DNA of 64,000 bases from a virus. Its lineage: Duplodnaviria; Caudoviricetes. Location: positions 192,001 to 256,000 of IMG/VR virus record IMGVR_UViG_3300037247_001786; one strand, written 5' to 3'. Positions 2,301 to 25,598 of the stretch are shown in pieces (positions within the stretch are counted from its first letter, which is position 1; the number at the start of each line of letters is the position of its first letter). The notes below the pieces were generated by a model, which ran no database searches, was not told where the DNA came from, and saw only the letters and a list, made by a program, of their open reading frames with translations. A program made the translations under genes and the position numbers.

Positions 2301-2524
2301 TGAAGTATAAGTGCAGATCAATTCCGTTAACAAAACTATTCGTTACAAATAAGGGATTCCTAAAGCCTCTTTGTACTAATTGCCAAACTATAGATTGTGA
2401 AAACGATATAGAAATACAAAAAGTTAGCATAATGGGAATAACGACGGAGTATAGATTACTGACGAAAAAAGATGGCTCATATATCGTTTCATCGTGCGAG
2501 GGATTTATTGATGACAAAAAATGA
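2300..2524 (+). CDS. Small Cys-containing hypothetical protein
   Basis: CTNCQTIDC motif; GTG start overlapping the upstream stop. Confidence 0.55.
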   Translation: MKYKCRSIPLTKLFVTNKGFLKPLCTNCQTIDCENDIEIQKVSIMGITTEYRLLTKKDGSYIVSSCEGFIDDKK

Positions 2525-3311
2525 CATGACGATAAATGATGCTATGGAAATAAATAATAGGTGGGAAGAGTATAGAAAAAAACAAATAAATTTGACAGTA
2601 GACTTATCAGCTAAAATAAAGAAAAATTTATCTACTAAAAAAGTGAGCTATAATGATTACAGGGAAGCTTTTGATTATGTCGGAAAAATATTTCCTGATA
2701 TAGAGGTTAAAGACATTGATGTAAGATTAGCTACTCCTATTTTATTAAAAAAATTAGGTTATAATGGCATAGGCGGTTTTTTTGAAAGAATAAGCAAAAC
2801 AGTTATTGTCTCGTCATATCAATTAGTTTCCAATGATTTCAATAAGAATTCTGTAAAAGCAAAATTGAATAAAGATGAGATTATAGTTCACGAATTATTG
2901 CATTATTGTCATGATGTTATAGGATCAAACTCAAGCGTTAACTTAAAAGAAGAATTTGCCTATGGATGGTCTCTGGGGTATTTAAGGGGTAAAGGATATA
3001 CGGATGAAGAGATAGTAAAAGATAATTACCTTCCTTATCTGTATAAAGTTTGTTCTGAAGATGGATATAAGAACATTTTAAGATCGGAAGAAATTAGTCT
3101 TGAAGAACTGAAGAGATCGTCAAGAGTTCACAGAGAAAAAGTTTTTAATAGCCGCTTAAGAAGTAAGATACATAAGGAAATTTTAGAATTATCAACAGTA
3201 AAAGGAAAAGAAATAATAAGAATCTACGACAAGAAGATAAAAGAGGGAAAGCCATACAGGTGCATAAATAAATCGAAAAATACTGTTTTTGACGTTTTGG
3301 ATTTGGAATAA
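2472..3311 (+). CDS. Putative HExxH zinc metallopeptidase-like protein with the FDxxD C-terminal motif
   Basis: IVHELLHYCH followed by EEFAY; ends VFDVLDLE. Confidence 0.5.
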   Translation: MAHISFHRARDLLMTKNDMTINDAMEINNRWEEYRKKQINLTVDLSAKIKKNLSTKKVSYNDYREAFDYVGKIFPDIEVKDIDVRLATPILLKKLGYNGIGGFFERISKTVIVSSYQLVSNDFNKNSVKAKLNKDEIIVHELLHYCHDVIGSNSSVNLKEEFAYGWSLGYLRGKGYTDEEIVKDNYLPYLYKVCSEDGYKNILRSEEISLEELKRSSRVHREKVFNSRLRSKIHKEILELSTVKGKEIIRIYDKKIKEGKPYRCINKSKNTVFDVLDLE

Positions 3312-3751
3312 TGTATACACATATAGAAAATAATCATGAAATATATTTTGCCGATGAAAAAGATTATCTAAGATGCAAATTAGAATATCTTGAAGATTAT
3401 ACTTATGACGTTTCGGGTCCTATAACTTTTACTTTTTTTGTTGATAGAAGATTATATGATAGGTCACAGGTTAGGGTTCTTGAAGTAAAACATATAGAAA
3501 CCCATCCATCGCAACAAAATTACGGAAGAGAAGACGAATCGGGCAGAAATAGATTTATAGGTTACGCTGCTGGTGACCAGGACGCAGGAGACGAGGGGCG
3601 TGTAACGGTGAGTATCCCTGCTGATTCTCTGCTGGCTTTTAACATAAAGGAAGGGAATGACGAAGCTTTTCTCGACTGTTTAATATGTCCCACACCAGCG
3701 ATACCTTCTAAAAAGAAGAAGTCTTATTTTGATATTATTGATGTAGATTAG
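3311..3751 (+). CDS. Hypothetical protein with the FDxxD C-terminal motif
   Basis: 146 aa; ends KKKKSYFDIIDVD. Confidence 0.7.
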   Translation: MYTHIENNHEIYFADEKDYLRCKLEYLEDYTYDVSGPITFTFFVDRRLYDRSQVRVLEVKHIETHPSQQNYGREDESGRNRFIGYAAGDQDAGDEGRVTVSIPADSLLAFNIKEGNDEAFLDCLICPTPAIPSKKKKSYFDIIDVD

Positions 3752-3772
3752 TGATTCCGATTATTGTAAGAT
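3750..3772 (+). promoter_or_regulatory. Putative promoter, AGTGA-N12-TAAGAT
   Basis: agtga ttccgattattg taagat directly upstream of the ORF at 3783. Confidence 0.55.
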
Positions 3773-3782
3773 AGGAAAAGAT

Positions 3783-4070
3783 ATGACGCGTTTTTATTAT
3801 TATAAACATCCTAATACAGATGAGATTTATTCAGATCAAAGAATGATGGGCTTCGAGACAAGACCCTACATAGCCCCAGATGGAGAAAAGTGTGAATTAT
3901 TAGAAGACTATGTTCCTCCTGCTAAAGATACTAAAAACCAAATAGGAATAATAAATAAAAATGCAGAAGTTTTTGAAAAAGATGCTGATTATGTAAAAAA
4001 GTGCAATCCAAAATATATTAAGTTTCGAGACGGGCATAGAGAGAAGTACGACCCTACAAGACACTGTTAA
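3783..4070 (+). CDS. Hypothetical protein
   Basis: 95-aa ORF downstream of the promoter motif. Confidence 0.65.
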   Translation: MTRFYYYKHPNTDEIYSDQRMMGFETRPYIAPDGEKCELLEDYVPPAKDTKNQIGIINKNAEVFEKDADYVKKCNPKYIKFRDGHREKYDPTRHC

Positions 4071-4081
4071 AAGGAAGTGAA

Positions 4082-4441
4082 ATGACGAATAGAATTTTAG
4101 GTAAAATAGGGCAATTTAAAACTGCTAAAAAACAATTGAAAAATATAGATAATTTAGAAATTATTGAAATAAAATATAAATATAGCGATGTGTATGAATT
4201 TGTAATAGATTTTAATAAAAGCAGGGTAGAAACCGTAGATGAAGATATCTTAAAAGAATCAATTGAAAGAAATTTTAAAAGCATTAAGAAAGATATAAAA
4301 GCCCTTTATAAAGAAAAGATAAAAAAATTAAATGAAGAGGCTATCGAAGAGGCTTATGAGTTTCTTGACGATAAAGAAAATGGCACAAAAAATATTTCTA
4401 AAAAGAAAAAAATATGGGACTATATTGATCTGGAGAGATAG
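4082..4441 (+). CDS. Hypothetical protein with the WDxID C-terminal motif
   Basis: AAGGAAG upstream; ends KKKKIWDYIDLER. Confidence 0.7.
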   Translation: MTNRILGKIGQFKTAKKQLKNIDNLEIIEIKYKYSDVYEFVIDFNKSRVETVDEDILKESIERNFKSIKKDIKALYKEKIKKLNEEAIEEAYEFLDDKENGTKNISKKKKIWDYIDLER

Positions 4442-4810
4442 ATGAGGTTTATAAGACAAGAAGAAATTATAACAACTATTTGCAATAAAGAAATAGAAGA
4501 TAATAAAAATATAGCTTTTGTTCTTGAAAGATTAAAAGAAGAGGGAGTATATTTCGCATTAACTATAAAAAAAATGTTTAGTAGTGATTACAGAGATCGT
4601 ACAATAGCGTATGAAAAAGTTAAAGTTAAAAATGTTAATGCCGAAACAGACAAAGTTGATTTTATAGTATATAAAGGAAGCTCTCTTATTAAACTAACTA
4701 ATATGGATTTTGAAGATATCAACGAGATATTTGCATTAACTAAAAAAACTAATTTATTAGATAGTAGTCAAAATAAGGGGTTCTTTGATTATATCGATAT
4801 CGAGGAATAG
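4442..4810 (+). CDS. Hypothetical protein with the FDxID C-terminal motif
   Basis: Ends NKGFFDYIDIEE. Confidence 0.7.
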   Translation: MRFIRQEEIITTICNKEIEDNKNIAFVLERLKEEGVYFALTIKKMFSSDYRDRTIAYEKVKVKNVNAETDKVDFIVYKGSSLIKLTNMDFEDINEIFALTKKTNLLDSSQNKGFFDYIDIEE

Positions 4811-4812
4811 AA

Positions 4813-5151
4813 ATGGAAGAAGAATTTGACTGTATATATTGTGGGAGATCAGTTTACATCGAAGAGGGACTAGAGGCTGAGATGGATAATACTTATCACC
4901 ACATGTGCCATATAGAATATCTTGAGTCCGAGATCTCTCGTTCCCAGTGGATAAGCGTCGAAGATAGATTGCCAAAAAAAGAGCGTATAAATTATTTAGT
5001 AATAGATGATCAAACAGGATATGTATCAACAGAACTATTTATGGTTAGGATGAAGTTTAGGTGGGACAAAGACGAAGCAGAGGTTGCTGAATTTTCAGAT
5101 TGGGTTACTCATTGGATGCCGATACCTAAATTACCAGGAGAGAAAATATGA
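4813..5151 (+). CDS. DUF551 domain protein with N-terminal CxxC
   Basis: WISVEDRLP...VTHWMPIPKLP signature. Confidence 0.8.
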   Translation: MEEEFDCIYCGRSVYIEEGLEAEMDNTYHHMCHIEYLESEISRSQWISVEDRLPKKERINYLVIDDQTGYVSTELFMVRMKFRWDKDEAEVAEFSDWVTHWMPIPKLPGEKI

Positions 5152-5636
5152 CAGAAGAAATAAAACCATGTTGGTGTTGTGGGCATGAAATGTTCGTTGG
5201 AGAGCATAAGCGTTCTCCTGGCAAATATGTTGTACGTTGTGGTTCAGATGGGACTAATTGTATATGGTTCCCATCATCTGGAGCTATCGAAAAAAAAGAT
5301 TTGCCGAGATATATTGCTATATGGAACGCAAGAAAAACAAGGAAATCAAACACTCATTACCAAAGGTTATTCGATAAATCCCTGAAGTTAAATATGATTT
5401 TAGCTGTAGAAAACTCCGAACTCAAAGATCCTTGGATAAGCGTCAAGGATAGGTTGCCAGAAAAAAAACATGAGGTTTTAATTTATTACACATATAAAGC
5501 AAACCAAAATTCATACACAGGAATTGCATTTCTCGACAAGGAGTTATGGTATAGCGATGACGGAAAAACAGTATTTAGGAAAGAAGAAGTAACTCTCTGG
5601 ATGCCAATACCCGAACTATCTAAAGGAGGCGAGTAA
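5148..5636 (+). CDS. Lar-like Zn ribbon fused to a DUF551 domain
   Basis: IKPCWCCG...VRC...AIWNAR at the N-terminus; WISVKDRLPE...VTLWMPIPEL at the C-terminus. Confidence 0.75.
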   Translation: MTEEIKPCWCCGHEMFVGEHKRSPGKYVVRCGSDGTNCIWFPSSGAIEKKDLPRYIAIWNARKTRKSNTHYQRLFDKSLKLNMILAVENSELKDPWISVKDRLPEKKHEVLIYYTYKANQNSYTGIAFLDKELWYSDDGKTVFRKEEVTLWMPIPELSKGGE

Positions 5637-5637
5637 G

Positions 5638-6273
5638 ATGGGAAGATGCGTAGGTGTGGGGACTAAGGAATGTTATAGCGTCGTTTCTTCTAATGGAGAT
5701 TTGTGCCGTTCTTGTCAATTCGATAAACTAAAAGCAGCAAACAGTCTATTAAAAGAAGCATTGGAAGAATCGGTTAGATTTCAATCTCATTATGCTAAAC
5801 TTTTAAATATGTACGACGCAGGAGAACGTATGGAATTTAAAGATGCTAATGAATGGATAGAAAGATTAGAGAAAATCGAAGGCGGTCAGATGGCGACATT
5901 AAAATATTCTGATATTAAACACGTTGGAAATGAACCGCAAAGAAAAAAATATTCTTATGAAGAAAAGATTTTTGCTGATAAATGGGAAGAGCTTAATGAT
6001 CGCAAGACAGGAACCAATGGAGGTTACGGTGCTTTAGAGTTGCTACTAGACAAGTCTGGATATGATAGCGGAAACTGGACAACCCACTTCATTCCTGTTG
6101 ATGAGATAACTGAAAGAGATGCTTTTGTCGCCGCGACTACGATTCAATGGTTAGGTACAAAATGTGGATGTGTTTTCTTGTGGGAATGTGAGCAAAAGAT
6201 AAAAGAAGAACATAAAAAAGAGATGGAAGAGTTTCATAAGAAATATAATTTACATGTAGAAGAAAATAGTTGA
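5638..6273 (+). CDS. Hypothetical phage protein
   Basis: 211 aa; GGAGG RBS; no confident family. Confidence 0.65.
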   Translation: MGRCVGVGTKECYSVVSSNGDLCRSCQFDKLKAANSLLKEALEESVRFQSHYAKLLNMYDAGERMEFKDANEWIERLEKIEGGQMATLKYSDIKHVGNEPQRKKYSYEEKIFADKWEELNDRKTGTNGGYGALELLLDKSGYDSGNWTTHFIPVDEITERDAFVAATTIQWLGTKCGCVFLWECEQKIKEEHKKEMEEFHKKYNLHVEENS

Positions 6274-6283
6274 AGGAAAAAAT

Positions 6284-7705
6284 ATGAGTTTTAGTAATAA
6301 AGATTTTGTACATTTTCACACACATTCTGACAGATCTCGTTTTGATGGATTAGCTAAATTATCTGATTTGGTACTTCAAGCTAGGAAGATGGGGTTTCCC
6401 GCTTTAGCACTTACGGATCATGGGAACGTTATGGGATATGTTCAATTCCTAAAAGACTGTAGAGCTACTTCTAATAAAAAAGGTCCAATTGAGTACGCTC
6501 CGATTAAACCTATTTTAGGCTCTGAATTTTATCTTGCTAGACAAATGAATATAGGGCAATACGAAGTTAAGAGAGATAAAGAGGGGAAAAAGCTCAAACC
6601 AAAAGATTTTCAACCAGATGGAAGAAAGGGCAATCGTCATCTTAATATATATGCTATGAACTGGGAGGGCTATAGTAATCTATGTACTCTCTCACAGCGT
6701 TCTTTTACGGAAGGTTTCTATTCTGACCCTCGTATTGATATTGAGCTGCTCTCAAAGCATTCTAAGGGTCTCATGGGAGGATCAGCTTGTTTGTCTAGTG
6801 TTATTAATGTGAACCTCTTATATGGCAATTACGATAAAGCTAAAAAGATGGCTGGGTTATTAAATGAGATTTTTGATAAAAATTTCTTCCTTGAAGTTAT
6901 GTACCATGGGATACCTGAAGAGAAGGCTATTATCCCAGATATATTTAAATTGTCTTCTGAATTAAACATCCCTATTATTGCTACGAATGATACTCATTAT
7001 ATCCTTCCAGAACATGCAGAATCTCAAGAAGTTTTAATGTGCATGAGCACAAGTAGATGCATTAAAGATCCTAAAAGGATGTCATTCTCTTATAAGGAGT
7101 TTTATCTTAAATCGGCGGAAGAGATGGCTAAAATGTTTGGAAGTACTCCTCATGTTTTGACTAATTCAGTTCTAATGGCAGACAGAGTAGATACGGCAGA
7201 TATCGAAAGAAATCTTTTCGGAGGTATGAGATTGCCTAAGTTCGCTATTCCTGATGAGTTTGAGAACTCTTTTGAATACCTTAAAAAATTATCTTGGGAA
7301 GGTTTGAAGAAGCATGGTTGGGATAAGAGTGAAAAGCATATTAAAGCACTGGAAAGAGAAATAGAAGATGTCAGAGTTGCTAAAGTTAATAATAATTATG
7401 ACTTTGCTACTTATTTTTTAATTGTTAAAGATTACCTTGATGCATCAAAAGATATGGATATATTGATTGGTAGCGGTAGAGGTTCAGGTTACGCATCCGT
7501 TATGCTGCGTTGTCTTGACATTACTTACGGTCCCGACCCACTCAAATTCGATCTTATCTGGGAAAGATTTTTAGGATTTGATGATCTGCGTTTTATAAAA
7601 GATTCAGATTTTGGTTTTGAAGAAGAAGTTAAATCTGTAGAAGTCGATGTATTAGATGTGGATAGAGATTTAGAAGATGACCAGGGTGGAGTTGATAGAT
7701 ACTAA
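6284..7705 (+). CDS. dnaE: DNA polymerase III alpha subunit, N-terminal piece (PHP domain plus start of palm)
   Basis: FVHFHTHSDRS, ALTDHG, PILGSEFY, ATNDTHY, GSGRGSG, DLIWERFL; ends in an acidic tail before the PDID motif. Confidence 0.93.
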   Translation: MSFSNKDFVHFHTHSDRSRFDGLAKLSDLVLQARKMGFPALALTDHGNVMGYVQFLKDCRATSNKKGPIEYAPIKPILGSEFYLARQMNIGQYEVKRDKEGKKLKPKDFQPDGRKGNRHLNIYAMNWEGYSNLCTLSQRSFTEGFYSDPRIDIELLSKHSKGLMGGSACLSSVINVNLLYGNYDKAKKMAGLLNEIFDKNFFLEVMYHGIPEEKAIIPDIFKLSSELNIPIIATNDTHYILPEHAESQEVLMCMSTSRCIKDPKRMSFSYKEFYLKSAEEMAKMFGSTPHVLTNSVLMADRVDTADIERNLFGGMRLPKFAIPDEFENSFEYLKKLSWEGLKKHGWDKSEKHIKALEREIEDVRVAKVNNNYDFATYFLIVKDYLDASKDMDILIGSGRGSGYASVMLRCLDITYGPDPLKFDLIWERFLGFDDLRFIKDSDFGFEEEVKSVEVDVLDVDRDLEDDQGGVDRY

Positions 7706-7720
7706 AACAGGAGAGAAGTA

Positions 7721-8228: not shown

Positions 8229-8353
8229 AATTTAATATTAGAGAATTTAGAAAATATTTTATGAAGAAATTTAATATAAGTGAAGAAGAGCTGAAAGAAG
8301 CTGAAAAAATGTGGAAGACGGAAGCATGTCGCAGGAGAAAGAATGGGAATTAA
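8225..8353 (+). CDS. Small hypothetical protein, 42 aa (below the ORF-track cutoff)
   Basis: ATGA overlap with the upstream stop; GAGG RBS; fills the gap between ORFs. Confidence 0.5.
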   Translation: MKFNIREFRKYFMKKFNISEEELKEAEKMWKTEACRRRKNGN

Positions 8354-8525: not shown

Positions 8526-8526
8526 A

Positions 8527-9510: not shown

Positions 9511-10128
9511 TTGGGAGTAATTATGAATATTTTAGATGTTAAGTATGATAATTTTGTAGATAGTTTATTTGTAAACACAGATGAATATGAGAGTAAAACT
9601 TTTAATAAAGTTAAAGATTTTAAAAAGAAATATATTGAGTCTTTAAAAAATAACTATTGTGTTATTAGAAGTGACGACCCCTTAAAAAAACAAGTTGGTT
9701 TTAAGGTTATCAATAAGGGGGAGGTAAAAAAATATTTAATTTCAATGAGAAAGATTGTAGAACATCTTCATCTTAAAGAAATAGATGAAAAAGAACTTGC
9801 TCTGTCTTTTGTTAAAAATTATTATAAAAGGATTCTCGATATCCCAGATAACGAAGATGAAATCGTAGATGTTAGATATGAGATTAAAGATAAAATGATA
9901 CTGATTCTTTTTGTAATGTCCGAGGGGTCTGTCTCTTCATTTTTGGAAGATGATTGTAATGTACTTCCTTTATATTTCACTACGATTGATGGTTTAGATG
10001 GTTGGAGTTATTCTATATGCTATTTAAGACAGAATGAATTGGAAGTAGCAGATTTTAGTGAGAGTTGGGGCAGTATAAAAGATTTTATTTCGGAAAAAAT
10101 TATAGATGATGATTTAGGAATTAAATAA
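9511..10128 (+). CDS. Hypothetical protein bracketed by 33-bp direct repeats
   Basis: 205 aa; ends DLGIK, like the upstream ORF. Confidence 0.65.
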   Translation: MGVIMNILDVKYDNFVDSLFVNTDEYESKTFNKVKDFKKKYIESLKNNYCVIRSDDPLKKQVGFKVINKGEVKKYLISMRKIVEHLHLKEIDEKELALSFVKNYYKRILDIPDNEDEIVDVRYEIKDKMILILFVMSEGSVSSFLEDDCNVLPLYFTTIDGLDGWSYSICYLRQNELEVADFSESWGSIKDFISEKIIDDDLGIK

Positions 10129-10146
10129 TGCCAGATGTAAAACAGA
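10114..10146 (+). repeat. 33-bp direct repeat, copy 2 (contains the dnaE-C start)
   Basis: ttaggaattaaataatgccagatgtaaaacaga. Confidence 0.9.
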
Positions 10147-12089
10147 TTAGAAAAGAAATAACCGATGCTATAAAAAAGAAGCGTGGCGATAAGATTTCAG
10201 AAGATCTTTGGAAAGCTATCGAAACAGAACTAGATATCTGCGAGATAACTGATGGATTGGGAGGTAAGAATAATCTTCAAACTTTTTATAATATATGGCA
10301 AAAAAGAAAAGATAAAGTCGGAAATAAGAATGAGATAAATAGTTGGATAGCTTACTCTTTAGGTTTCACAAGTAAAAAACCAGATGGCGAATTCTTATTT
10401 AAAAGAAGAGCTTTCGCTAGAGCAGGCTTCCCAGATATAGATGTAGACTTCGAAGATAGCCGTCAGAACGATGTTTTCGAATACTTGGTAGATACTTACG
10501 GGAGAGATAAGGGCGGCAGGATAGGCACACATCAGTTCTTAACATTTAAATCATGCATCACAAGAGTTGTTAAGGCTTTAGATATAGCCGACGCATTTCA
10601 TAAAGGTAAAGATGTTATGACCACCGAAAATGCGAAAAAGGTTTCAGAAATATTAGAGTCGTTTCCTAAAGGTGGAGTTATCCGTCTTAGAGGCGACGAT
10701 GGAGAGATGCATCTTATTAAAACTATCAAAGATGCATATGAGCATAGCCCAGATTTTAAGCATTATATGGATAAGTATCCTTTACTTAAAAAGCATAGCT
10801 TTGAGGTAGAAAAAACTTTTTCAGCATTCGGATCCCATGCGGCCGGTTATGTGATATCGGATATACCTATCGAGAAGATTGCTCCTTTAAGAAGAGCAAC
10901 AGGAGATGCCTTATGCACTCAATTTACAGGACCAGAATTAGAGAGTTTGGGGCTGATAAAGTTTGATATTTTAGGTTTATCTACTTTAAGTGTTATTAAA
11001 AAATGTTTAGAGCTAATAAAAGAAAATTATGATATAGATATTGATATCGCCAATTTGTCTTTAACTGATGAACCAACTTTTAAATTATATAGAACTGGTA
11101 ATTTGGGAGGAGTATTTCAGTGTGAGCAATCAGGAATGCAACATACCATGAGAGAGATTGGAGTCGATAGATTTGAAGATATAATGGCTGGAGTTGCTTT
11201 ATACAGACCTGGACCTATGGATAATATTCCAGATTATTGTGCCAGAAAAAAGGGTGAGCAACAGATAGACTACTTCCATCCTTCTATTGAGCCTTTTGTT
11301 AAGAAGCATCTTGAAAAAACATACGGCATTCTAGTCTATCAAGAACAGATTATGAATATATGTAGTTCTTTAGCTGGTTTCTCTATCACAGATGGTTACA
11401 TAATGATTAAAGCTATTGGCAAGAAAAAAATAGAACTTATGAAGAAATTCGAGAACCAATTTATTGAGGGAGCTATGAATAACGGAGTTCCTAAAGAGGT
11501 CATCGAACAGTATTGGTCTAAATTTATAGTTCCATTCTCTAATTATGGTTTTAATGCTGCACATGCATGTTGCTATGGTTTTAACAGTTACATCACAGCA
11601 TATCTTAAAGCTAATTATCCAGATGAATTTATTTGTGCTACTCTTATTACGGAAACCAAAAAGAATTCTGGAACTAAGTTTGAGAAGCTGTCTGGTTTTG
11701 AAAGGGAATTTAAAAAGAAATTAGCTGTTAAATTTTTGTCAAGAAATATTAATGACTGTAAATTAGATTATGTTATAGAGAAGAAGAAAGATCTTCAAAA
11801 TGGAGTTATGGTTTCAGAGATAAGACCTTCTTTAATTTGTAAGGGTTTGGGATGGGTTGCTGCTAAGGAAATAGAGAAAAATCAACCTTTTGAGAATTTA
11901 AAGGATTTCGCGGAAAAAAATGGATCATCTGTTGACACTAAAGCGGTATTAGCTTTAGTCGTAGCAGGCTATTTCGGAGCAAAGCCCAAGAAAAATTCAG
12001 AAGCATTCGTAAGGCAATTTGCAATCATTAAAGAAGATATTAAAAAAGTTCGTAAAAAAGGAATTGAATCTGTAGATATATTTGGATAG
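10128..12089 (+). CDS. dnaE: DNA polymerase III alpha subunit, C-terminal piece (palm, thumb, fingers, HhH)
   Basis: FPDIDVDF, GSHAAG, LIKFDILGLSTL, GVFQCE, ALYRPGPM, TYGILVYQEQIM, YGFNAAHA, YLKANYP. Confidence 0.95.
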   Translation: MPDVKQIRKEITDAIKKKRGDKISEDLWKAIETELDICEITDGLGGKNNLQTFYNIWQKRKDKVGNKNEINSWIAYSLGFTSKKPDGEFLFKRRAFARAGFPDIDVDFEDSRQNDVFEYLVDTYGRDKGGRIGTHQFLTFKSCITRVVKALDIADAFHKGKDVMTTENAKKVSEILESFPKGGVIRLRGDDGEMHLIKTIKDAYEHSPDFKHYMDKYPLLKKHSFEVEKTFSAFGSHAAGYVISDIPIEKIAPLRRATGDALCTQFTGPELESLGLIKFDILGLSTLSVIKKCLELIKENYDIDIDIANLSLTDEPTFKLYRTGNLGGVFQCEQSGMQHTMREIGVDRFEDIMAGVALYRPGPMDNIPDYCARKKGEQQIDYFHPSIEPFVKKHLEKTYGILVYQEQIMNICSSLAGFSITDGYIMIKAIGKKKIELMKKFENQFIEGAMNNGVPKEVIEQYWSKFIVPFSNYGFNAAHACCYGFNSYITAYLKANYPDEFICATLITETKKNSGTKFEKLSGFEREFKKKLAVKFLSRNINDCKLDYVIEKKKDLQNGVMVSEIRPSLICKGLGWVAAKEIEKNQPFENLKDFAEKNGSSVDTKAVLALVVAGYFGAKPKKNSEAFVRQFAIIKEDIKKVRKKGIESVDIFG

Positions 12090-12135: not shown

Positions 12136-12468
12136 ATGAAGAAATCAATTATTAAAAAATCAATTACGAGAAAAATTAGTACAGCTCCATACGAGACCCT
12201 TGATGTTCATGTAGAAATACAAGAAGAGATAGAATGGGAGAATATGCAGCAGAGAATTGAAAAAGCCGATTCGGTGTCAAAAATCCTCATTTTAGATTTT
12301 GTAAAGACATTAAATCAAGTAGCGGCTGAGTTGCACGTAGATAAAAAAATAGCATCTATTTCTGGCAAAAAAAATCCTCAAGAAGCTCAAGAAAAACCAG
12401 TGGATACGTCGATAAATAATAGTAAAGATGGTGATGTCGCTGGTGCTGATTTTGACTTTTTAAGCTGA
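12136..12468 (+). CDS. Hypothetical protein
   Basis: AAGGAG RBS; acidic-aromatic tail ADFDFLS. Confidence 0.7.
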   Translation: MKKSIIKKSITRKISTAPYETLDVHVEIQEEIEWENMQQRIEKADSVSKILILDFVKTLNQVAAELHVDKKIASISGKKNPQEAQEKPVDTSINNSKDGDVAGADFDFLS

Positions 12469-12498: not shown

Positions 12499-13803
12499 AT
12501 GGTTTTAGGTAACGATGTAGTCCAAGAAGTAAAAGATATGTTTAACATAGATTATTCTCAAGATAATGTTCAAGATGATGCTCAAGATAATGTAGAAGTA
12601 TCTGTAGAACCTTTTAAAGAGCTTGAGCAAGAAGTTTCTGATATAATATCAGGGATGGAAGACAAGGGGGATATTATAGATAGTCCAGCCGAAGATATTA
12701 CTGAAATCGCTGTCGAGCGGTCAGATGAATCTAAAGAGAACAACATAGAAAATAACAATACAGAGGAGAGTAAAGTGGAAACTATTGAAGATTTGATTGC
12801 TGATTCAGTGGAAGAGGCTTCATTGAAAACTAAAACACAAGATCAGCAGGATGATATAGTCCAAATAGATATAGAAGAAGATTGTTTCGATAGTATCGTC
12901 ATAGAAAAAAGTAGTTCTTGCGAAACGCCTTCTTCAGAAGAAAAGATAGAGACTTCTCCTAAAGAGGAAGTATCTGTTATAGAAGAAGAAGATATAGACA
13001 TAATCCCTCAAAAAGATGATGAGGGCAATGTTAAGGGTGAACTTAAAATGAAAAATGTCGTAAGTATATCTGTTGACGATAAGGGCAAAACCATTATCAG
13101 AGGTGGGGAAATCGTCTGGAGTATCGAAAGTCCTTCTGAGCTTTATGACTCATTTTATAATATCAAAAGAAACCATATAGATACTTTTTCTGGAGGTGAA
13201 CAGTTGGACTTTGATAGTCTCTATGCGGAACTATTTGGGGCTAAAGTCGATACCTCGACAGAAGTTTTAGACCAATATATCTTGGTGGAAAAAATGGATG
13301 CTGTTATGCAATGTATCGAAAGAGTAGCGATGATACAAGTTCAAATTAATCAACAGCATTTTGTTTGGAAGAGGTTTGTAGAACTACTAAGAGGGGCTTT
13401 AGCTAGGGTACAGTATTTGAAACCAGTTTTAAAACAAGATGGTTTAATATTAGAACATATGGGAGATGTAGAGTTTTATTCTGATAGATTGTTAGCTATT
13501 AAGAATTCAGCAAATGATGTGATGGGAACGTTAGAGAAGGCTTTTGAATCTTTGAGTAGAAAAGTTAGCATAATGTTAACCGTCCAGAGTAAACATGTGA
13601 TCAGAACGGCACCGGATGCCTACGGTCAATCCTCTCAGCAGACCTACCAAGCTCCTCCTCCATCTACAGTTGCGGAAGAAAGCCCAGCGTCAATGATTAC
13701 GCCTACTCAGAATTTAGGTGATTATGATGGTTTTGAGATAGGAACAAAAGTAGCTTCAACCAGACTCTCTTCTGGAGTAGTTAGTTGGGGAGAAGTATTT
13801 TAA
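12499..13803 (+). CDS. Hypothetical protein: long acidic N-terminus and helical C-terminal half (possible recombination mediator)
   Basis: D/E-rich first ~170 aa; amphipathic helical segment; located just before ssb-recA. Confidence 0.6.
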   Translation: MVLGNDVVQEVKDMFNIDYSQDNVQDDAQDNVEVSVEPFKELEQEVSDIISGMEDKGDIIDSPAEDITEIAVERSDESKENNIENNNTEESKVETIEDLIADSVEEASLKTKTQDQQDDIVQIDIEEDCFDSIVIEKSSSCETPSSEEKIETSPKEEVSVIEEEDIDIIPQKDDEGNVKGELKMKNVVSISVDDKGKTIIRGGEIVWSIESPSELYDSFYNIKRNHIDTFSGGEQLDFDSLYAELFGAKVDTSTEVLDQYILVEKMDAVMQCIERVAMIQVQINQQHFVWKRFVELLRGALARVQYLKPVLKQDGLILEHMGDVEFYSDRLLAIKNSANDVMGTLEKAFESLSRKVSIMLTVQSKHVIRTAPDAYGQSSQQTYQAPPPSTVAEESPASMITPTQNLGDYDGFEIGTKVASTRLSSGVVSWGEVF

Positions 13804-13880: not shown

Positions 13881-14618
13881 ATGAACGGAGTATTAGACTG
13901 GGGCGATTTCACCCCTAACAACAACAAAGGAAACAGTGATAGGTTAAACTTTTTATGGTTAAAAAGTGGGAACACTTATCGAGTAAGGCCAGTAGCTAAG
14001 CCAGTTATTTTTTACAAATATTTTTATCGTAATGATGGAAAGTTGAGAACAGCTATTTGTGAAGATCCTGCAAGTTGCATGGTTAAAACTGCCCATCCAG
14101 AATTAGATACACCTGGTGAGCGATTCGCCATTTTGGTTATCGACAGAGCAGATGGTGAGTTAAAGATAATGGAATTCACAAAGGGAGTATTCTTGTCTAT
14201 CAAGGCATGGTGGAACGCAACTCAACAGAGTCCTGGAGGAAATGACGGCGTCGATTGGGCGATTCAGATCACAGGGTCAGGTAAGAATGGTACTAAATAT
14301 ACTGCCACCCCTACGACCCCAACTCCTTTCACTAGCGAAGAGAAGTCGATGATTATTGGCATCATCAAAGATGCTGATGGTAATGATGCTCATTATCTTG
14401 AGGGTATATTTAAGCCCCATAGTGCAGAGGTTATTGAGAAGAAGTTATTCGGTGAATGGGAAACAAGAGGTGATCAGGGAGGTACGCAAACCTCTCAGGC
14501 ACCAGTTGATGCACAACCAGCACCAGTTGATGCACAGCCAGCTCCTGCTGCTGCACAGCCAGCTCCTGCTGCCCCTGCTGCAACTCAAACATCAGGCAAT
14601 TTCGACATTGATTTCTAA
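13881..14618 (+). CDS. ssb: Single-stranded DNA-binding protein, gp32-like phage type
   Basis: Aromatic-rich beta region (YRVRPV...FYKYFY), Ala/Pro/Gln linker, acidic-aromatic tail NFDIDF; adjacent to recA. Confidence 0.7.
   Translation: MNGVLDWGDFTPNNNKGNSDRLNFLWLKSGNTYRVRPVAKPVIFYKYFYRNDGKLRTAICEDPASCMVKTAHPELDTPGERFAILVIDRADGELKIMEFTKGVFLSIKAWWNATQQSPGGNDGVDWAIQITGSGKNGTKYTATPTTPTPFTSEEKSMIIGIIKDADGNDAHYLEGIFKPHSAEVIEKKLFGEWETRGDQGGTQTSQAPVDAQPAPVDAQPAPAAAQPAPAAPAATQTSGNFDIDF
14499..14573 (+). repeat. 21-bp in-frame tandem repeat (about 3.5 copies) encoding APVDAQP/APAAAQP
   Basis: gcaccagttgatgcacaacca / gcaccagttgatgcacagcca / gctcctgctgctgcacagcca / gctcctgctgcc. Confidence 0.9.
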
Positions 14619-17599: not shown

Positions 17600-18241
17600 A
17601 TGCAAGACGGGAAAAAAGACGAGAAAACAACAAGTGACGATTCATTACTTCTAATAAGTGGAAGCAAAGGAAGCAAGAAAGAAGATAAAGAATATGCCAA
17701 GAAGATATCAGGAGCTATTATTTCATGTATCACTAAATATGATAATGCAAAATTAAGATGCGTAGGAGCTGCGTCTTTAAATAATGCAATAAAAGGTATC
17801 ATTATCGCTAAAAATGATATTTTAAAAAGAGGAGAGTATCTGTTAGTTAATCCTAGTTTTACAATGGTTAGATTCGGTGATGAAGAAAAAACTGGACTAA
17901 TACTCGAAGCAATAAGTATAAAAACTTTTGAAAAAGATGGAAATTTAAATAGAGATGAGGCTCTTTTAAAGGTGAGAGGCAATAGGGGGAGCAGAGAAGA
18001 GAATAAAGAGTATGTTAAAAAGTTATCCAATGCTGTGCTTTCCTGTTTTTCAAAACAGGGAATAGCGTTACTTCGCTTTGTAGGAGTTTCATCTGGCAAT
18101 AACGCTCTGAAAGCTGCTACAATAGCTGTAGGAAATGCACTGCTAGAAGGAAAAACTTTAATGATAGATCCTAGTTTTACGACAGTTAAATTCGGTGAAG
18201 AAGAAAAAACAGGAATGATATTAGAAATAATTTCTGTGTAA
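17600..18241 (+). CDS. spoVS: Tandem two-domain SpoVS (Alba-fold) protein
   Basis: Both halves match the SpoVS pattern (VGAASLNNAIKGIIIA...PSFTMVRFGDEEKTG and VGVSSGNNALKAATIA...PSFTTVKFGEEEKTG). Confidence 0.8.
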   Translation: MQDGKKDEKTTSDDSLLLISGSKGSKKEDKEYAKKISGAIISCITKYDNAKLRCVGAASLNNAIKGIIIAKNDILKRGEYLLVNPSFTMVRFGDEEKTGLILEAISIKTFEKDGNLNRDEALLKVRGNRGSREENKEYVKKLSNAVLSCFSKQGIALLRFVGVSSGNNALKAATIAVGNALLEGKTLMIDPSFTTVKFGEEEKTGMILEIISV

Positions 18242-20233: not shown

Positions 20234-20254
20234 TAATTATAATGAGGTAGAAAA

Positions 20255-22174
20255 ATGAAGATGAAGTTAAACGAACACCAAGAAAAAGCTGCTGACCACT
20301 TTGATGGACCATGTCTCGTAACGAGTTGTCCTGGATCAGGAAAAACATTTACACTGGTCGAGAGAATCGTAAGACTTATTGATAAGGGGGTTCGTCCTCA
20401 AAATATTTTGTGCATCACCTTTACTAATAAGGCTGCGGCAGAGATGAAGGAACGTATTTGTAAAAGGTTAGGAGTTAAAACTCCTGGTTTCTTTATTGGA
20501 ACGTTCCACTCCCTTTGTGCTAACGTCTTACGAAAGATGGGTCATCTTGGAGGATATCCTTCTGATTTTACTATTATAGATGATAAAGAGCAGTTCAACG
20601 TTGTAATGCAGATAGCCAGAAAAATGGGAAGAGAAGTAGATAAGCCAGAAGTATATAATATATTAAAATTCCTTAATCATTATAGAGACCAGCAAGGCGA
20701 TTTTTCCTATGTCGAAGATAGACTGGTTCATGATTATCAAATAGATATAGCTAGGAGATATCTTGAAAAATGTAAAGAATCTCATCTAGTAGATTTTAGT
20801 GCATTGATATATGATGCTATACAACTGATAGAAGATTGTGATGAGATTAGAGATAAATTGCAAAATGGTTTTAAGTATATATTGGTTGATGAAACTCAAG
20901 ATACTAATAACTCTCAATATCATTTGGTAAATCTTTTAGGAGCAAAATGGAATAATATTATGTTAATTGGCGACTTAGATCAGTCTATCTATTTATTCCG
21001 AGGAGCAAGATATAAAAATTTACAAAATTTTATCAAAAAACATGATAACTGCACTGTCATCCCTCTGTCCAAAAATTATCGTTCTACACCTGAGATAATA
21101 GGAGCAGCGGATAAGCTCATTAAACATAATAGTAGCCATATGGGAGGAAAGTTCGAAACAGACAATCCAAGCGGAGAGCCTGTCAGATGCTTCCAGAAGA
21201 GCAATCAAATATCTGAGGCTAATTGGGTAGGAGATCAAATTAGAAGGCTTAAAGAGGAAGGTGGATGGGATGGTGACGATATAGCTGTCTTGTATCGTAT
21301 GAATAAGATGTCTGAGCCGATAGAACAAAGTTTAGCGGCAAGAGGTATCCCATATGAGGTTATTGGAAATTTTAGTTTCTACGATAGAAAGGAAGTTAAA
21401 GATGTTATAGCAATGATTAAATTTTTAATTAATAAAAGAGATGGAATTGCTTTTCATAGAATATGTTCAATACTTCCAGGAATGGGAGATGTTACAGTTG
21501 GTAAAATAGAGAATAGGGCTGAAGAACAAGGAATTACCATACTGCAAGCAGCTAACGATATATTAGAAGGATGCAGATCGGTTAAGGTAAAAAATGCTTG
21601 TCGCAAAATAGTAGAAGTGTATGGCTCAGAATATGATCACTCTAAGCCAGCCCAATCTATTATGTCGCTTGTCGAACAATTTAATTATTCAGATTATCTA
21701 GAAAAATATTATCCTAAAAATGCTATTGAACGTAAAGATAATGTTTCGCAGATTGTAGAGTCGGCGAGTAGTTATAATGATTTTTCTGATGGCATAGAGA
21801 AATATTTACAACAGATATCTCTTGTATCGCATAGCGACAAAGAAGTGGAAGGGAAGAAAGTTTCCCTTATGTCTCTCCATGCCGCAAAGGGTTTAGAGTA
21901 CCCTGTTATTTTTATGATTGGGGTAGAAGAGAGTATATTGCCTCATGGTAGAGCTATTAGCGAAAATCCAGAAGAGGGACTCGAAGAAGAACGTAGGTTG
22001 GCATATGTTGGAATGACAAGAGCGAAGAAAGTTCTTTATATAACGTATTGTTCTAGTCGTTTCGGTTTCGGTAAGTTTGGAAATAAGAACCAGAGAAAAG
22101 TAATTCCAAGTAGATTTTTAACAGAGGCAGGGCTTATAGATGAGCAAAGAGATAGAACGAAAATTTATTATTAA
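20255..22174 (+). CDS. uvrD: UvrD/PcrA-family SF1 helicase
   Basis: PGSGKT, TFTNKAA, GTFHS, LVDETQD, GDLDQSIY, KNYRST, AVLYR, SLHAAKGLEY, EERRLAYVGMTRA. Confidence 0.95.
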   Translation: MKMKLNEHQEKAADHFDGPCLVTSCPGSGKTFTLVERIVRLIDKGVRPQNILCITFTNKAAAEMKERICKRLGVKTPGFFIGTFHSLCANVLRKMGHLGGYPSDFTIIDDKEQFNVVMQIARKMGREVDKPEVYNILKFLNHYRDQQGDFSYVEDRLVHDYQIDIARRYLEKCKESHLVDFSALIYDAIQLIEDCDEIRDKLQNGFKYILVDETQDTNNSQYHLVNLLGAKWNNIMLIGDLDQSIYLFRGARYKNLQNFIKKHDNCTVIPLSKNYRSTPEIIGAADKLIKHNSSHMGGKFETDNPSGEPVRCFQKSNQISEANWVGDQIRRLKEEGGWDGDDIAVLYRMNKMSEPIEQSLAARGIPYEVIGNFSFYDRKEVKDVIAMIKFLINKRDGIAFHRICSILPGMGDVTVGKIENRAEEQGITILQAANDILEGCRSVKVKNACRKIVEVYGSEYDHSKPAQSIMSLVEQFNYSDYLEKYYPKNAIERKDNVSQIVESASSYNDFSDGIEKYLQQISLVSHSDKEVEGKKVSLMSLHAAKGLEYPVIFMIGVEESILPHGRAISENPEEGLEEERRLAYVGMTRAKKVLYITYCSSRFGFGKFGNKNQRKVIPSRFLTEAGLIDEQRDRTKIYY

Positions 22175-23012
22175 AGATTATCCTTCGATAGATAAACACA
22201 GAGATAGTATTTACTATTCAGAGGTGAATATAACGCAAGGGTATTTTAAAAATGGGCAAGTCAGAATCAGGCTGACCAGTCGAGGTCTGTATGAAGAAGA
22301 TCCTCAAGCTTTTTTAACTATAAAAAGTAAAAGAGAAGGCATCTCAAGATACGAATTCGAATATGAGATAACAGTAGAAGATGCTCAACAAATGATAGAT
22401 TTGTTTTGCGATCATATTATTGAGAAGACCAGATACAATGTAAAGGAAAATGAAAAGAAGTGGGAAATCGATGTTTTTAAAGGGGACAATGATGGATTAG
22501 TTTTAGCCGAGATAGAATTAGAATCAGAAGATGAAGAAATGACTCTCCCTTATTTCGTCGGCAAAGAAGTTACAGACGATGAAAGATACTATAACTCTTA
22601 TCTTTCCAAAACCCCCTATAAGGAATGGAAAAGATTGTGGACATCTCATTTTAATTCAACTGAATTTGATTATAGCAAAGCCGTCTCTATATGCGGTAAG
22701 CCTCCTGCCTATTATGGAGGAAGAGAATATAAAAAATTAGCACCTAAATATTGGTTCTTTAAAAAATATAAAGAAGATGGAGACAAAGATTTTTATAGAG
22801 AACAATACTATAAAGAAGTTTTAGATAAGTTAGATCCAGAGGAAGTTTATAAAGATTTAGGCAAAGATGCAGTTCTCCTCTGTTGGGAGAACCCAGACGA
22901 GTTTTGCCATAGACATATGGTGGCAGATTGGTTCAATGATAAAATAATACAATATCAAGGTAACGGTTTTGAAGTAGAAGTTAATGAAGTAGGAGAAGAA
23001 AATGAAATGTAA
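22140..23012 (+). CDS. CYTH-domain protein fused to a DUF488-like domain
   Basis: EIERKF...EKTRY...WEIDVF...LAEIEL...YYNSYL, then in frame KLAP...LLCWE...FCHRH. Confidence 0.8.
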   Translation: MSKEIERKFIIKDYPSIDKHRDSIYYSEVNITQGYFKNGQVRIRLTSRGLYEEDPQAFLTIKSKREGISRYEFEYEITVEDAQQMIDLFCDHIIEKTRYNVKENEKKWEIDVFKGDNDGLVLAEIELESEDEEMTLPYFVGKEVTDDERYYNSYLSKTPYKEWKRLWTSHFNSTEFDYSKAVSICGKPPAYYGGREYKKLAPKYWFFKKYKEDGDKDFYREQYYKEVLDKLDPEEVYKDLGKDAVLLCWENPDEFCHRHMVADWFNDKIIQYQGNGFEVEVNEVGEENEM

Positions 23013-23196
23013 TATTTGTAAAGGCAAGAAATGGTTAAAATATCATACTTTTAAGGAGAAAATAAAGTGTCCTTATTGTGATGCTACTGGGATAAGAGGT
23101 TCTGATTATAGTTCTTCATTAGATATACAAGTGGATGTATATAATCAATATCCAGATGGTGACATTTTTTATAAAAATAAAACAGGAGAAGAGTAA
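23002..23196 (+). CDS. Small Zn-finger protein (DnaJ-type CxxCxG)
   Basis: CNICKG...CPYCDATG. Confidence 0.55.
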   Translation: MKCNICKGKKWLKYHTFKEKIKCPYCDATGIRGSDYSSSLDIQVDVYNQYPDGDIFYKNKTGEE

Positions 23197-23197
23197 A

Positions 23198-23455
23198 ATG
23201 AATAGAAAAGAATTAGAGCAAGAGATAATCAAGATAGTGGCATATCAGATATCCTATGATGTAAATGAGATTACGACAAGTGAAAATTTTATCAATGATT
23301 TAGGTTTTGATAGTCTTGATGGTGTAGAGTTGATTATGGGAATAGAAGATAAATTTGATTTAAGTGTTGAAGATGAGGATTTCTACAGATTGACCACTGT
23401 TGACCTTGTAGCTGATTATGTCGAGAAAAATGATTCTAATATTAGCATAAGGTAA
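23198..23455 (+). CDS. acpP: Acyl carrier protein
   Basis: DLGFDSLDGVELIMGIEDKF phosphopantetheine-Ser motif; likely start MNRKEL at 23198 after GGAG. Confidence 0.9.
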   Translation: MNRKELEQEIIKIVAYQISYDVNEITTSENFINDLGFDSLDGVELIMGIEDKFDLSVEDEDFYRLTTVDLVADYVEKNDSNISIR

Positions 23456-23458
23456 TCT

Positions 23459-23956
23459 ATGGCAACTGTCCGTAATATTTTTGAGTTATCTCCAGAAGAT
23501 TTTTTTCAGTTAGTCCAGACGGGAGCTTGCTGTAGGGATTTTTCAATTTTATTACACAATGGTGATTGGAAGGATGTTTCCCTTAGAGAGACATCTCTTT
23601 CTATTGATCCTGCTGCTATGAAATCTTCAATATTATTGTGCGGGATTGTCAAGACTGATATAAATTCTATTATGTCTTTTACAGGTCCAACTTTTATTAG
23701 CCTTTTAGGAAAAGAGATCCCGTGCGAAGTTATTAGTTGGCAAACTAATATGTCGCATATTTCTCGCCATGATGGAAGGGAAGAAGTTGTATCGGTTGAT
23801 TCGGATATAGGTATTTATTTATCGTATAGTGGGTATCATTTTAGGCATAGAAGTTGGTGCGATATAGAAGAGGGCGATTCTAAACCCACGATTAAAGAGA
23901 TGGAGAAAAAGATAGAAAAGAAAAAAACATTTTTCGATTGGATAGATATGGATTAA
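23459..23956 (+). CDS. Hypothetical protein with the FDxID C-terminal motif
   Basis: Ends KKKTFFDWIDMD. Confidence 0.65.
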   Translation: MATVRNIFELSPEDFFQLVQTGACCRDFSILLHNGDWKDVSLRETSLSIDPAAMKSSILLCGIVKTDINSIMSFTGPTFISLLGKEIPCEVISWQTNMSHISRHDGREEVVSVDSDIGIYLSYSGYHFRHRSWCDIEEGDSKPTIKEMEKKIEKKKTFFDWIDMD

Positions 23957-23957
23957 T

Positions 23958-24218
23958 TTGGAGAAAGAAATGAACAAAATTTTTACTTGCCCAATGTTGG
24001 TAGGATGTCATGTCCCTCTATACAAAACTCGTGATAGTTTTTTTGTAGGGGCTAAAAATATAGATGAAGCCAGAACATATGTAGTGGAACATATAGAAAA
24101 TAGATGTAAAGAGTCTGGTCTCAAAATGGTAGAATATTTCGGAGCTATTAAGTTAGAAGGATATATGTGTAATGATGTATATTACATAAAAGAGATAACT
24201 GAAAGAAATTTTAATTAA
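23958..24218 (+). CDS. Hypothetical protein
   Basis: 86 aa. Confidence 0.55.
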   Translation: MEKEMNKIFTCPMLVGCHVPLYKTRDSFFVGAKNIDEARTYVVEHIENRCKESGLKMVEYFGAIKLEGYMCNDVYYIKEITERNFN

Positions 24219-24300
24219 AGAAAAAAGAAGGAATATTTCGATAATAATTTAATAAGTTAATTAGTAAATAATTAAATAATAGAAAAGGAGAAATATTCTA

Positions 24301-24636
24301 ATGGGAAAAAAGAAGAAAAAAACGGTACCAGTAAAAATTAACACAAAACCAAAGCCTAGAGATACAAATGACATTCTTTGCGATACTAGGGCTGATATAG
24401 AGCCTATATTGGATTTAAATGTCCAAGGTCAAACTATAGAAGGTCTTTTGAATTTAAAGCAGACATATGACACCAGAGATAACATAACTGTATCTTTTAG
24501 GGTTCCTAAGAACGTTCTCGATTGGGCAAAAACAACAGCCATGAAAGAAAGTTTAGCTCATGATGAAGAGATTCATTACCAAAAACTTATTTTAAGTTGC
24601 TTCCTAGACAGATATCCTCTTGTCGAAAAGGAGTAG
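24301..24636 (+). CDS. Hypothetical protein, possible ribbon-helix-helix regulator
   Basis: ITVSFRVPKNVLDWAK beta-alpha pattern; AAGGAG RBS. Confidence 0.45.
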   Translation: MGKKKKKTVPVKINTKPKPRDTNDILCDTRADIEPILDLNVQGQTIEGLLNLKQTYDTRDNITVSFRVPKNVLDWAKTTAMKESLAHDEEIHYQKLILSCFLDRYPLVEKE

Positions 24637-24640
24637 AGAT

Positions 24641-25060
24641 ATGCCTTTTTATATTATTCAAGAAGATGGTAAAGGTTATATTAAAATCGGCAAGGGCTAT
24701 GCTTATGATAGAATGAGGGAGTTTAGCACGGGGAATCCTCATAATATGGAACTTTTAAAACAGCTTCCAGGTGGATACAGAGAAGAGCATATATTACATA
24801 AGGTATTTTATAGAGAAAGATTAGACCCCAGTCATGAATGGTTTTTTCCTAGTGAAGAACTATTAAAAGCTGCGTCCCTTGAAGATAAAGAATTAGTTAA
24901 TCTCATAAATAACGCAGAAAAGATTATCGCAAGTCATCCCTATGATTGGGATAGAATGTGTGTGAAGTTTGATGGAGAATCAGATGAAGATGTTGAAAGA
25001 AGACAAGAAAAATATGCTGCATATAGAGCTGCCCCATATCTTTGGAAATATGGAGAGTAA
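24641..25060 (+). CDS. GIY-YIG/T5orf172-like nuclease
   Basis: FYIIQ...YIKIG...RMREFSTGNP...EHILHKVF...EWF. Confidence 0.75.
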   Translation: MPFYIIQEDGKGYIKIGKGYAYDRMREFSTGNPHNMELLKQLPGGYREEHILHKVFYRERLDPSHEWFFPSEELLKAASLEDKELVNLINNAEKIIASHPYDWDRMCVKFDGESDEDVERRQEKYAAYRAAPYLWKYGE

Positions 25061-25064
25061 ATAA

Positions 25065-25295
25065 ATGGCTACTTTCTTTAATCGCCCGCATATTAAAATA
25101 GGTGAAAATAAATTTTATGGAGAGATTAAGTTCCAAGAGGGGGTTTTTAATGAGTCAAACGATGCCAACTCTTATAGATATGACAATACGTCCTCTATAA
25201 ATTATAAGAAGAAGGGCAAAAAGAAAAAAGTAGAAAAAAAAGTTAATAAAAAGAAACAAAATATATTCGATATCATTGATTTAGAGGACTCGTAA
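25065..25295 (+). CDS. Small basic protein with the FDxID C-terminal motif
   Basis: Ends KKKQNIFDIIDLEDS. Confidence 0.65.
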   Translation: MATFFNRPHIKIGENKFYGEIKFQEGVFNESNDANSYRYDNTSSINYKKKGKKKKVEKKVNKKKQNIFDIIDLEDS

Positions 25296-25598
25296 ATGAA
25301 AACGCCATCACAAAGAAGACGAGATGGAGCTGCGAATAGGATTAAGTTTAAAACGCAGTTCGATGTGGATATGGCAAATGGTGTCCCTTCATATGAATAT
25401 GGGCGAGATTCTGGTATCAATTATAATGGCGGAACAAGAAGGAAATCTGGAAAAACTAACATTGTGTCGAAAAGAGAATTAGAAAAAGAAGCTAAAAAAG
25501 TAGAAAAAGCAAGAAAGATAAGAGAGGCTAAAGAATTAGCCTTAAAAAAAGAATTAGAAAATAGAACTATATTCGATATCATTGATATCGATGATTAA
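25296..25598 (+). CDS. Small basic protein with the FDxID C-terminal motif
   Basis: Ends ENRTIFDIIDIDD. Confidence 0.65.
   Translation: MKTPSQRRRDGAANRIKFKTQFDVDMANGVPSYEYGRDSGINYNGGTRRKSGKTNIVSKRELEKEAKKVEKARKIREAKELALKKELENRTIFDIIDIDD

Follow-up and report, generated by a model that had tools for sequence, protein, structure and literature searches.

A C-terminal peptide shared by unrelated proteins of a huge phage: a candidate docking tag for a Ycf46-type AAA+ ATPase

Unrelated proteins of a huge tailed phage end in the same short peptide, which we call the tail. We describe it here from a 64,000-nucleotide stretch of DNA (the window), which covers positions 192001-256000 of the 460,978-bp virus record IMGVR_UViG_3300037247_001786. 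On sequence evidence, the tail is real, is selected at the peptide level and is clade-wide, and in related phages it is expanded to dozens of ORFans. Its variation between genomes suggests that it may be a docking or recognition tag for the system of a Ycf46-type AAA+ ATPase encoded just upstream of the window, an assignment to which we give chances approaching, but short of, even. The genome has direct terminal repeats and 34% G+C, is complete by CheckV, and has its genes almost wholly on the plus strand.

The tail and its carriers

Seven open reading frames (ORFs) of the window end in the tail, whose consensus in this genome is h-F-D-x-[IL]-D-h-[DE] (h, hydrophobic). All lie on the plus strand, and their ends at 3311, 3751, 4441, 4810, 23956, 25295 and 25598 read as the original prediction had quoted them, as does a near-match ending at 60226. 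The first carrier (2511-3311, 266 aa) is a gluzincin-like protein, with an HExxH motif followed by EEFAYG, and ends TVFDVLDLE, the motif codons being 3288-3308. Its start had been placed at 2472; the homologues argue for 2511, which gives the 266 aa that they also have. It is followed by a 146-aa protein (3311-3751) ending KKKKSYFDIIDVD, a 119-aa singleton (4082-4441) ending KKKKIWDYIDLER and a 122-aa protein (4442-4810) ending NKGFFDYIDIEE. A second group of carriers consists of a 165-aa protein (23459-23956) ending KKKTFFDWIDMD, a 76-aa protein (25065-25295) with a small body, a lysine-rich linker and the tail NIFDIIDLEDS, and a 100-aa protein (25296-25598) ending NRTIFDIIDIDD. The near-match, FFANIDLEDSPPKNK, belongs to a 135-aa zinc-ribbon-like protein (59819-60226, plus strand), in which FFANIDLED is followed by six more residues; a similar FFENIDLEDNP stands 20 residues before the end of a 248-aa ORF near genome position 9490.

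Further carriers are found outside the window at genome positions 103026-103292, 110727-111215 and 312086-312568, together with looser matches at 326816-327703 and in an ORF ending FEILDL at 105218. The motif also stands once at the opposite end: a 148-aa protein (genome 280637-281083) carries the full motif, MQSQMDKKTLFDIIDLEDGD, at its N-terminus after a basic patch, suggesting that the tag can function away from the C-terminus.

The whole genome was scanned with the pattern [FW][DEA]x[IL]D[LIVM][DE] over 734 crude genes (144,826 aa). The pattern was taken from the same data, and independent related genomes confirm it. Thirteen matches were found, 10 of which lie within the last 12 residues of their proteins, against 0.4 expected (binomial P = 2.4e-13). 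In 2000 composition-matched shuffles of the tails, the mean was 0.03 matches and the maximum 1, so that the enrichment over shuffled C-termini on which the original prediction depended is borne out, and none of 1316 non-gene ORFs of the genome contains the motif. The prediction of a "phage-wide" address tag stands insofar as the tag is shared and selected; its reach is narrower than that wording, with about 12-14 carriers among about 730 genes here and 17 to 38 or more in relatives.

The codons that encode the tail differ between carriers (TTT/TTC, ATA/ATC/ATT, TTA/TTG/CTG/ATC/GTA), and the 18-nt core has a mean pairwise identity of 66%. Because codon choice varies in this way, selection is taken to act on the peptide and not on a DNA repeat, as had been proposed. 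A DNA-repeat origin of the tail is ruled out by the synonymous variation. The bodies of the carriers are likewise unrelated, as predicted, with no mutual BLAST similarity. Pfam and PHROG family searches of the carriers returned nothing credible, and a literature search for the peptides found no published description of the tail.

The gluzincin-like carrier (hereafter the zincin) shows how firmly the tail is kept. It has 87 homologues in huge-phage contigs, with identities down to 30%, and nearly all of them retain the tail, as the original prediction required of related phages. H127, E128, H131 and E147 are invariant among the 87, and the HExxH motif with the downstream EEFAYG is a gluzincin signature. 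The linker ahead of the tail varies in length and sequence among the homologues. In an AlphaFold2 (AF2) model, the body has a predicted local distance difference test (pLDDT) value of 89.8 and the tail one below 50, and residues 245-266, which comprise the linker and the tail, are disordered. The fold gave weak Foldseek matches to zinc peptidases, and the zincin profile found no match among PDB sequences. In both carriers folded with AF2, the tail follows a disordered linker.

Tail dialects in related huge phages

Megablast and tblastn searches found no close relative among GenBank phages, and single-protein scans of IMG/VR found no relatives either; an alignment-based scan of IMG/VR alone succeeded. 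It yielded 14 syntenic loci, in phages whose size reaches 548 kb, and in them a large number of small, mutually unrelated ORFs have the ending R-F-[DE]-[ILF]-[LM]-D-[LI] plus 0-7 residues. The pattern F-[DE]-x-x-D-x-stop has 38, 26, 17 and 6 matches in four related huge phages, and the reversed-pattern control has 0. The exact DNA pattern for FEILDL-stop in IMG/VR has real matches in three known relatives and two further contigs, the remainder being chance matches in short frames.

One relative, of 548 kb, has a 17-kb array on the minus strand (L025, G001:134001-153500). Its genes, about 40 in number and 58-174 aa in length, nearly all end P-I-x-[NSD]-R-[FSA]-E-[IL]-[LM]-D-[LI]. Many genes of this array have CxxC pairs near the N-terminus, and it includes a paralogous family of 120-175 aa with the tail R-[SA]-E-[IL]-L-D-L plus 2-6 residues. 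Only 2 of 67 carriers scanned have a credible Pfam domain (DUF4116 and DUF551).

Three families of carriers are found throughout the clade. One is the zincin; the second comprises the proteins of about 120 aa represented by window 4442-4810, a 10-member orthologous group in which the tail is always present; the third is represented by window 3311-3751, has tailed orthologues of 146-197 aa in related phages, and includes L001, L003, L008 and L012.

Tails are near-uniform inside a genome and differ between genomes, in the manner of dialects. Position -7 is R in 33 of 42 relatives' tails, and is hydrophobic in the present genome and its close relatives, which also append a terminal D or E. Between one and seven residues follow the core in 16 of the 42. 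Exceptions are shared as well: in L071 both carriers have N in place of the otherwise invariant D(-2), and in L013 D(-2) is absent from the zincin and the ATPase alike. Such concerted variation within genomes would be expected if the tails co-evolve with a single common receptor. It makes docking to one hub, one of several functions that the original prediction had listed, the best-supported class of explanation.

The Ycf46-type ATPase as candidate receptor

The hub that the comparison points to is a 557-aa AAA+ ATPase encoded at genome positions 186388-188061, 4-5.6 kb upstream of the window. In the AF2 model, it has a degenerate AAA-like N-terminal half and one ATPase domain of the classic Cdc48-like kind. 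The domain belongs to the Pfam families AAA and AAA_lid_3, and its best PDB sequence match is Cdc48/p97. Over its full length, the protein is homologous to Ycf46: Foldseek against reviewed UniProt models gave E values of 1e-43 to 1e-47 and TM values of 0.75-0.86, and the alignment runs from residues 17/21 to 536/542 at 34-36% identity. PADLOC returned generic AAA similarity only. In several relatives the ATPase itself contains inteins.

The ATPase carries a short form of the tail itself. It ends KNIDIE, and its orthologues end [KR]-x-[IL]-D-[IL]; the extra terminal E is limited to the lineage whose carriers add an acidic residue too. In 14 genomes, the number of residues after the core in the ATPase tail correlates with that in the zincin tail (Spearman 0.70, permutation P 0.005, without correction for phylogeny). 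Synteny between the ATPase gene and the conserved carriers holds in 13 of 14 loci. The ATPase is also unusually well conserved, its full-length orthologues having 44-57% identity, compared with 25-44% for neighbouring genes. In the remaining lineage (L011 type), the N-terminal half of the ATPase stands alone on a 68-kb contig, the zincin tail is degenerate (FDFMVL) and there is no other carrier.

Cellular homologues provide a second context. When one genome per prokaryotic species was scanned, ATPase homologues numbered in the hundreds, and about half of those inspected have an R-x-h-[DE]-h ending; examples are QRMEF from cyanobacteria, RRMEF from Verrucomicrobiota and RGGRxLD[LFVY], which several other groups have. 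Ten bacterial loci have a conserved operon composed of one to three HHH_3 (ComEA-like) proteins, a radical-SAM-like Fer4_12 protein, the ATPase, an uncharacterised protein and DUF2997 (bacterial genome contigs including L093, L097, L103, L110, L111, L123, L136 and L143). Both the ATPase and its HHH_3 neighbours have the R-x-h-D-h ending there. Several HHH_3 proteins start with a hydrophobic N-terminal stretch, and these first residues point to a possible transmembrane anchor. No PADLOC system matches the operon. Hidden Markov models of the radical-SAM-like protein, DUF2997, the downstream protein and HHH_3 found no match in the phage; the ATPase is therefore the sole component common to the phage and the operons. 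That tails are shared with the ATPase in two unrelated genetic contexts of which it is the only common part is the chief ground for placing the putative receptor at or with the ATPase.

Several observations weigh against this assignment. The correlations between dialects carry no correction for phylogeny. The argument from loss is that of one lineage, on a contig estimated to be 14% complete. The ATPase does not dock its own, disordered tail in the AF2 monomer, and the short form of the motif on the ATPase matches the long carrier motif at the last three positions only (h-D-h). The motif-bearing ATPase could equally be a fellow client of a third hub.

Such a third hub would be bound by all tagged proteins including the ATPase, and could be either encoded by the phage or a universal host protein. 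The ATPase indeed carries its tail as a client would, and this tail co-varies with the others and is not docked on its own protein in the AF2 monomer. Phage candidates would be the 434-aa replisome protein, SSB, or a small conserved protein without the tail (window 3783-4070, plus strand, ending KFRDGHREKYDPTRHC), which measures 75-95 aa across relatives and lies invariably between the conserved carriers. However, the phage module and the tail-sharing cellular operons have no common protein except the ATPase, and a host protein could be the hub only if it were conserved from Paenibacillus to Gastranaerophilales as well as in the hosts of these phages. We consider a third hub rather unlikely.

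If the ATPase is the receptor, the tail would act as a short linear docking or recognition peptide behind a flexible linker, mostly at the extreme C-terminus, and one tail would give unrelated proteins one common partner. A candidate site on the ATPase ring would bind h-D-h tails, and the tail of the ATPase itself may fill this site, in cis or as part of an adjacent subunit. Proteins with the tag, among them the zincin and many small ORFans, would then be recruited as clients, adaptors or substrates for remodelling or unfolding. One possible role is that they serve as adaptors or substrates for targeted unfolding or proteolysis in host takeover or replisome maintenance. In a broader and more doubtful proposal, there may be an unrecognised client-recruitment system around Ycf46-type ATPases, in which ATPase and clients share R-x-h-D-h. 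It would work with membrane-anchored HHH proteins in bacterial operons, and huge phages would have expanded it to dozens of small tagged proteins and a zincin protease that the ATPase engages.

Terminal docking peptides are a known principle; the motif, its scale and the link to Ycf46 are undescribed as far as found. AAA+ systems use such peptides in the XB motif of SspB for ClpX, the MIM of ESCRT-III for the MIT domain of Vps4, the HbYX of proteasome activators and the C-terminal tail of HslU for HslV. The phage tail resembles them in its arrangement of folded body, flexible linker and short terminal peptide, and in the use of one peptide by several proteins toward one AAA+-centred machine, and here too a putative cognate AAA+ protein is encoded nearby. 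HbYX offers a further likeness to the tail sharing in the phage, as ATPase and non-ATPase factors have the same ending. The differences are that the consensus is not that of LRVVK, HbYX or MIM1/2 (motifs quoted from general knowledge), that Ycf46 has no known function, partner or peptidase, and that the identity of the receptor in the phage is only predicted. Our literature search found no paper on the mechanism of Ycf46.

A tail of this kind might also be a degron that times the removal of early proteins and is read by a phage or host protease. The original prediction had named one reader, the AAA/M41 protease of the window (61292-63307), a soluble, Clp-type protein; the comparison instead implicates the upstream Ycf46-type ATPase, which bears the motif itself. 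Most carriers are small ORFans, in arrays of a kind usual for early genes, and the tail is mostly at the extreme C-terminus. The AAA/M41 protease, moreover, occurs in this phage and in the only complete relative (44% identity) and may be the reader; it was not found in four other relatives, all partial and hence uninformative. An ssrA-like degron has a fixed, extreme C-terminal position with a free carboxylate, whereas here 0-7 residues follow the core, as seen in the relatives' tails, and one copy stands at an N-terminus, so that the tail can do without a free carboxylate. Timed removal also fits poorly with a long-lived enzyme pair, ATPase and zincin, that is tailed in every genome, and with a phage genome in which no ClpP or proteasome families were found. 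We regard a degron as very unlikely.

We give even less credence to the idea that the tail is a packaging or localisation signal, which would load proteins into the capsid for ejection or import them into a phage-made compartment. A shared terminal peptide on heterologous cargo is the typical look of such signals, as in encapsulin cargo-loading peptides and the capsid-targeting sequence of T4, and the capsids of huge phages are roomy. However, the tail has no link to structural genes. The conserved carriers are proteins of the replication module, the ATPase among them, and the same sharing of tails occurs in bacterial operons that have no capsid. Capsid co-packaging, which had also been suggested from the sequence, thus finds no support, the carriers being located either in the replication module or among arrayed small ORFans.

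The sliding clamp, other terminal motifs and the replication module

A striking resemblance, and one that the original prediction missed when it noted that no described signal was recognised, is to the clamp-binding tails of phages T4 and RB69. RB69 gp43 ends EKKASLFDMFDF and gp55 ends SPSLDFLYEDDN, with the same h-F-D-h-h-D-h pattern as the phage tail (LFDMFDF in gp43), a basic patch ahead and 0-4 acidic residues behind. T4 gp43 ends EKASLDFLFG (PMC6212786). The T4 proteins gp43, gp33 and gp55 are unrelated and have interchangeable hydrophobic-acidic C-termini on unstructured linkers (PMC2988020). In the present phage, too, a hydrophobic-acidic motif of six to eight residues with basic residues ahead ends unrelated proteins of one genome after a variable, unstructured linker. 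The tail might therefore bind the sliding clamp of the phage, as on a toolbelt, and so keep the ATPase, zincin and small proteins attached to clamps loaded on DNA. In the T4 system, a loop of the ligase is also known among the clamp-binding elements.

The phage does encode a divergent beta-type sliding clamp (411 aa, genome 262145-263380), in one cluster with dnaX, a sigma-like gene and a possible holA (L019:4091-8541, genome 260091-264541); the cluster lies 4 kb beyond the window and is conserved in relatives. Pfam beta-clamp models missed this clamp in genome scans; its profile matches solved beta clamps over the full length (E 3.7e-18), and the clamp family has more than 600 representatives. 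The position of the conserved carriers in the replication module is in keeping with clamp binding. A complex prediction for the clamp dimer (82-row alignment) and the last 32 residues of the 76-aa carrier gave 0.12 and 0.00, against a mark of 0.32, a result that speaks neither for nor against clamp binding. The sigma-like protein adjacent to the clamp ends KEIFDKY in relatives and KEVFKQH here; its C-terminal K-E-[IV]-[FY]-D-K-Y is conserved in relatives and recalls the clamp-coupled late transcription of T4.

The polymerase, however, does not share the tail. The DnaE core (window 10128-12089, plus strand) ends GIESVDIFG, and most relatives have [ST]-[VIM]-D-[ILM]-F. This end belongs to another motif, x-[VI]-D-[ILM]-F-[GDE], which resembles the clamp-binding QL[SD]LF and is carried by DnaE in nearly every genome, by two DNA methyltransferases, by a few small proteins and, as K-D-M-F-N-I, by the N-terminus of a 434-aa protein. 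Written more loosely as x-[VI/N]-D/N-[ILM]-F-[GDE], it is found at window 200-1042, 10128-12089, 12499-13803 (N-terminus) and 55564-56043, and at genome 119417-119692, 291066-292097 and 311862-312086. This second class is stable clade-wide, whereas the tail varies by lineage, and the two classes never interconvert. That the two motif classes are stable and distinct points to two receptors, the clamp being the likely one for the DIFG class.

The tail itself does not match the bacterial beta-clamp consensus QL[SD]LF / QLxLxL. It resembles that motif as a short terminal hub-docking element of replication proteins with an h-x-h end, such as the LGL of Pol IV, and differs in lacking the Q-L start and the terminal F; the element of this phage that is like the consensus is the separate x-[VI]-D-[ILM]-F class. 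Other differences from T4 and RB69 are the type of clamp (beta-type here, gp45-type there), the dozens of ORFan carriers and the sharing with Ycf46. Competition of 38 or more small ORFans for the clamp would be implausible, and some tail-bearing ATPase homologues occur in records labelled archaeal (labels unchecked), archaea having no beta clamps. We find clamp binding by the tail distinctly unlikely; if true, it would extend the toolbelt logic of T4 to a beta-type clamp with a far larger set of clients.

The 434-aa protein, encoded between DnaE and SSB, was considered as a clamp and rejected, having a disordered acidic N-terminal half, a helical C-terminal domain and no PDB match. A third class of ends is acidic with aromatics: ADFDFLS on a 110-aa protein after DnaE (window 12136-12468), GNFDIDF on SSB (window 13881-14618) and VDNFDFEDF on DnaB (genome 188901-190391). 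These ends recall the tails of T7 gp4 and gp2.5. The SSBs of relatives end D-[DE]-[LF]-P-[FW], like the bacterial SSB tip.

The replication module occupies the first 27 kb of the window and encodes an N6/N4 methyltransferase, a split DnaE, SSB, RecA, a Toprim primase and a PD-(D/E)XK nuclease. DnaE is divided into a PHP/N-terminal gene (6284-7705) and the polymerase core, with 2.4 kb of small ORFs between them; some relatives have an unsplit DnaE gene of 1100 aa. The same 27 kb also encode UvrD, a SpoVS-like protein (17600-18241), a CYTH/DUF488 fusion (22140-23012), an acyl-carrier-like (PP-binding) protein (23135-23455) and an Apyc1-like metallo-beta-lactamase (26554-27357), a candidate cyclic-nucleotide anti-defence enzyme. 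Genes immediately upstream of the window encode an SNF2-type helicase, a Dam-like methyltransferase and an IF3 homologue, the last full-length (L015:9829-10329) and directly upstream of the Ycf46-type ATPase. The ATPase is followed by a DnaC/IstB-like protein (assigned from language-model features alone), DnaB and an intein-bearing primase. The last is a primase zinc-ribbon protein with a LAGLIDADG-domain intein, covering window 1-199 and genome 190394-192199.

Small ORFans abound in huge phages, and the shared tag brings together 12 to 40 or more of them in each genome, which offers a direct experimental handle. If the Ycf46-type ATPase is the receptor, the tag would tie these ORFans to an AAA+ family that is widespread in cyanobacteria, plastids and many other bacteria and for which neither mechanism nor partner is known. 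Recognition of clients by such a common C-terminal peptide would then be a testable hypothesis for Ycf46.

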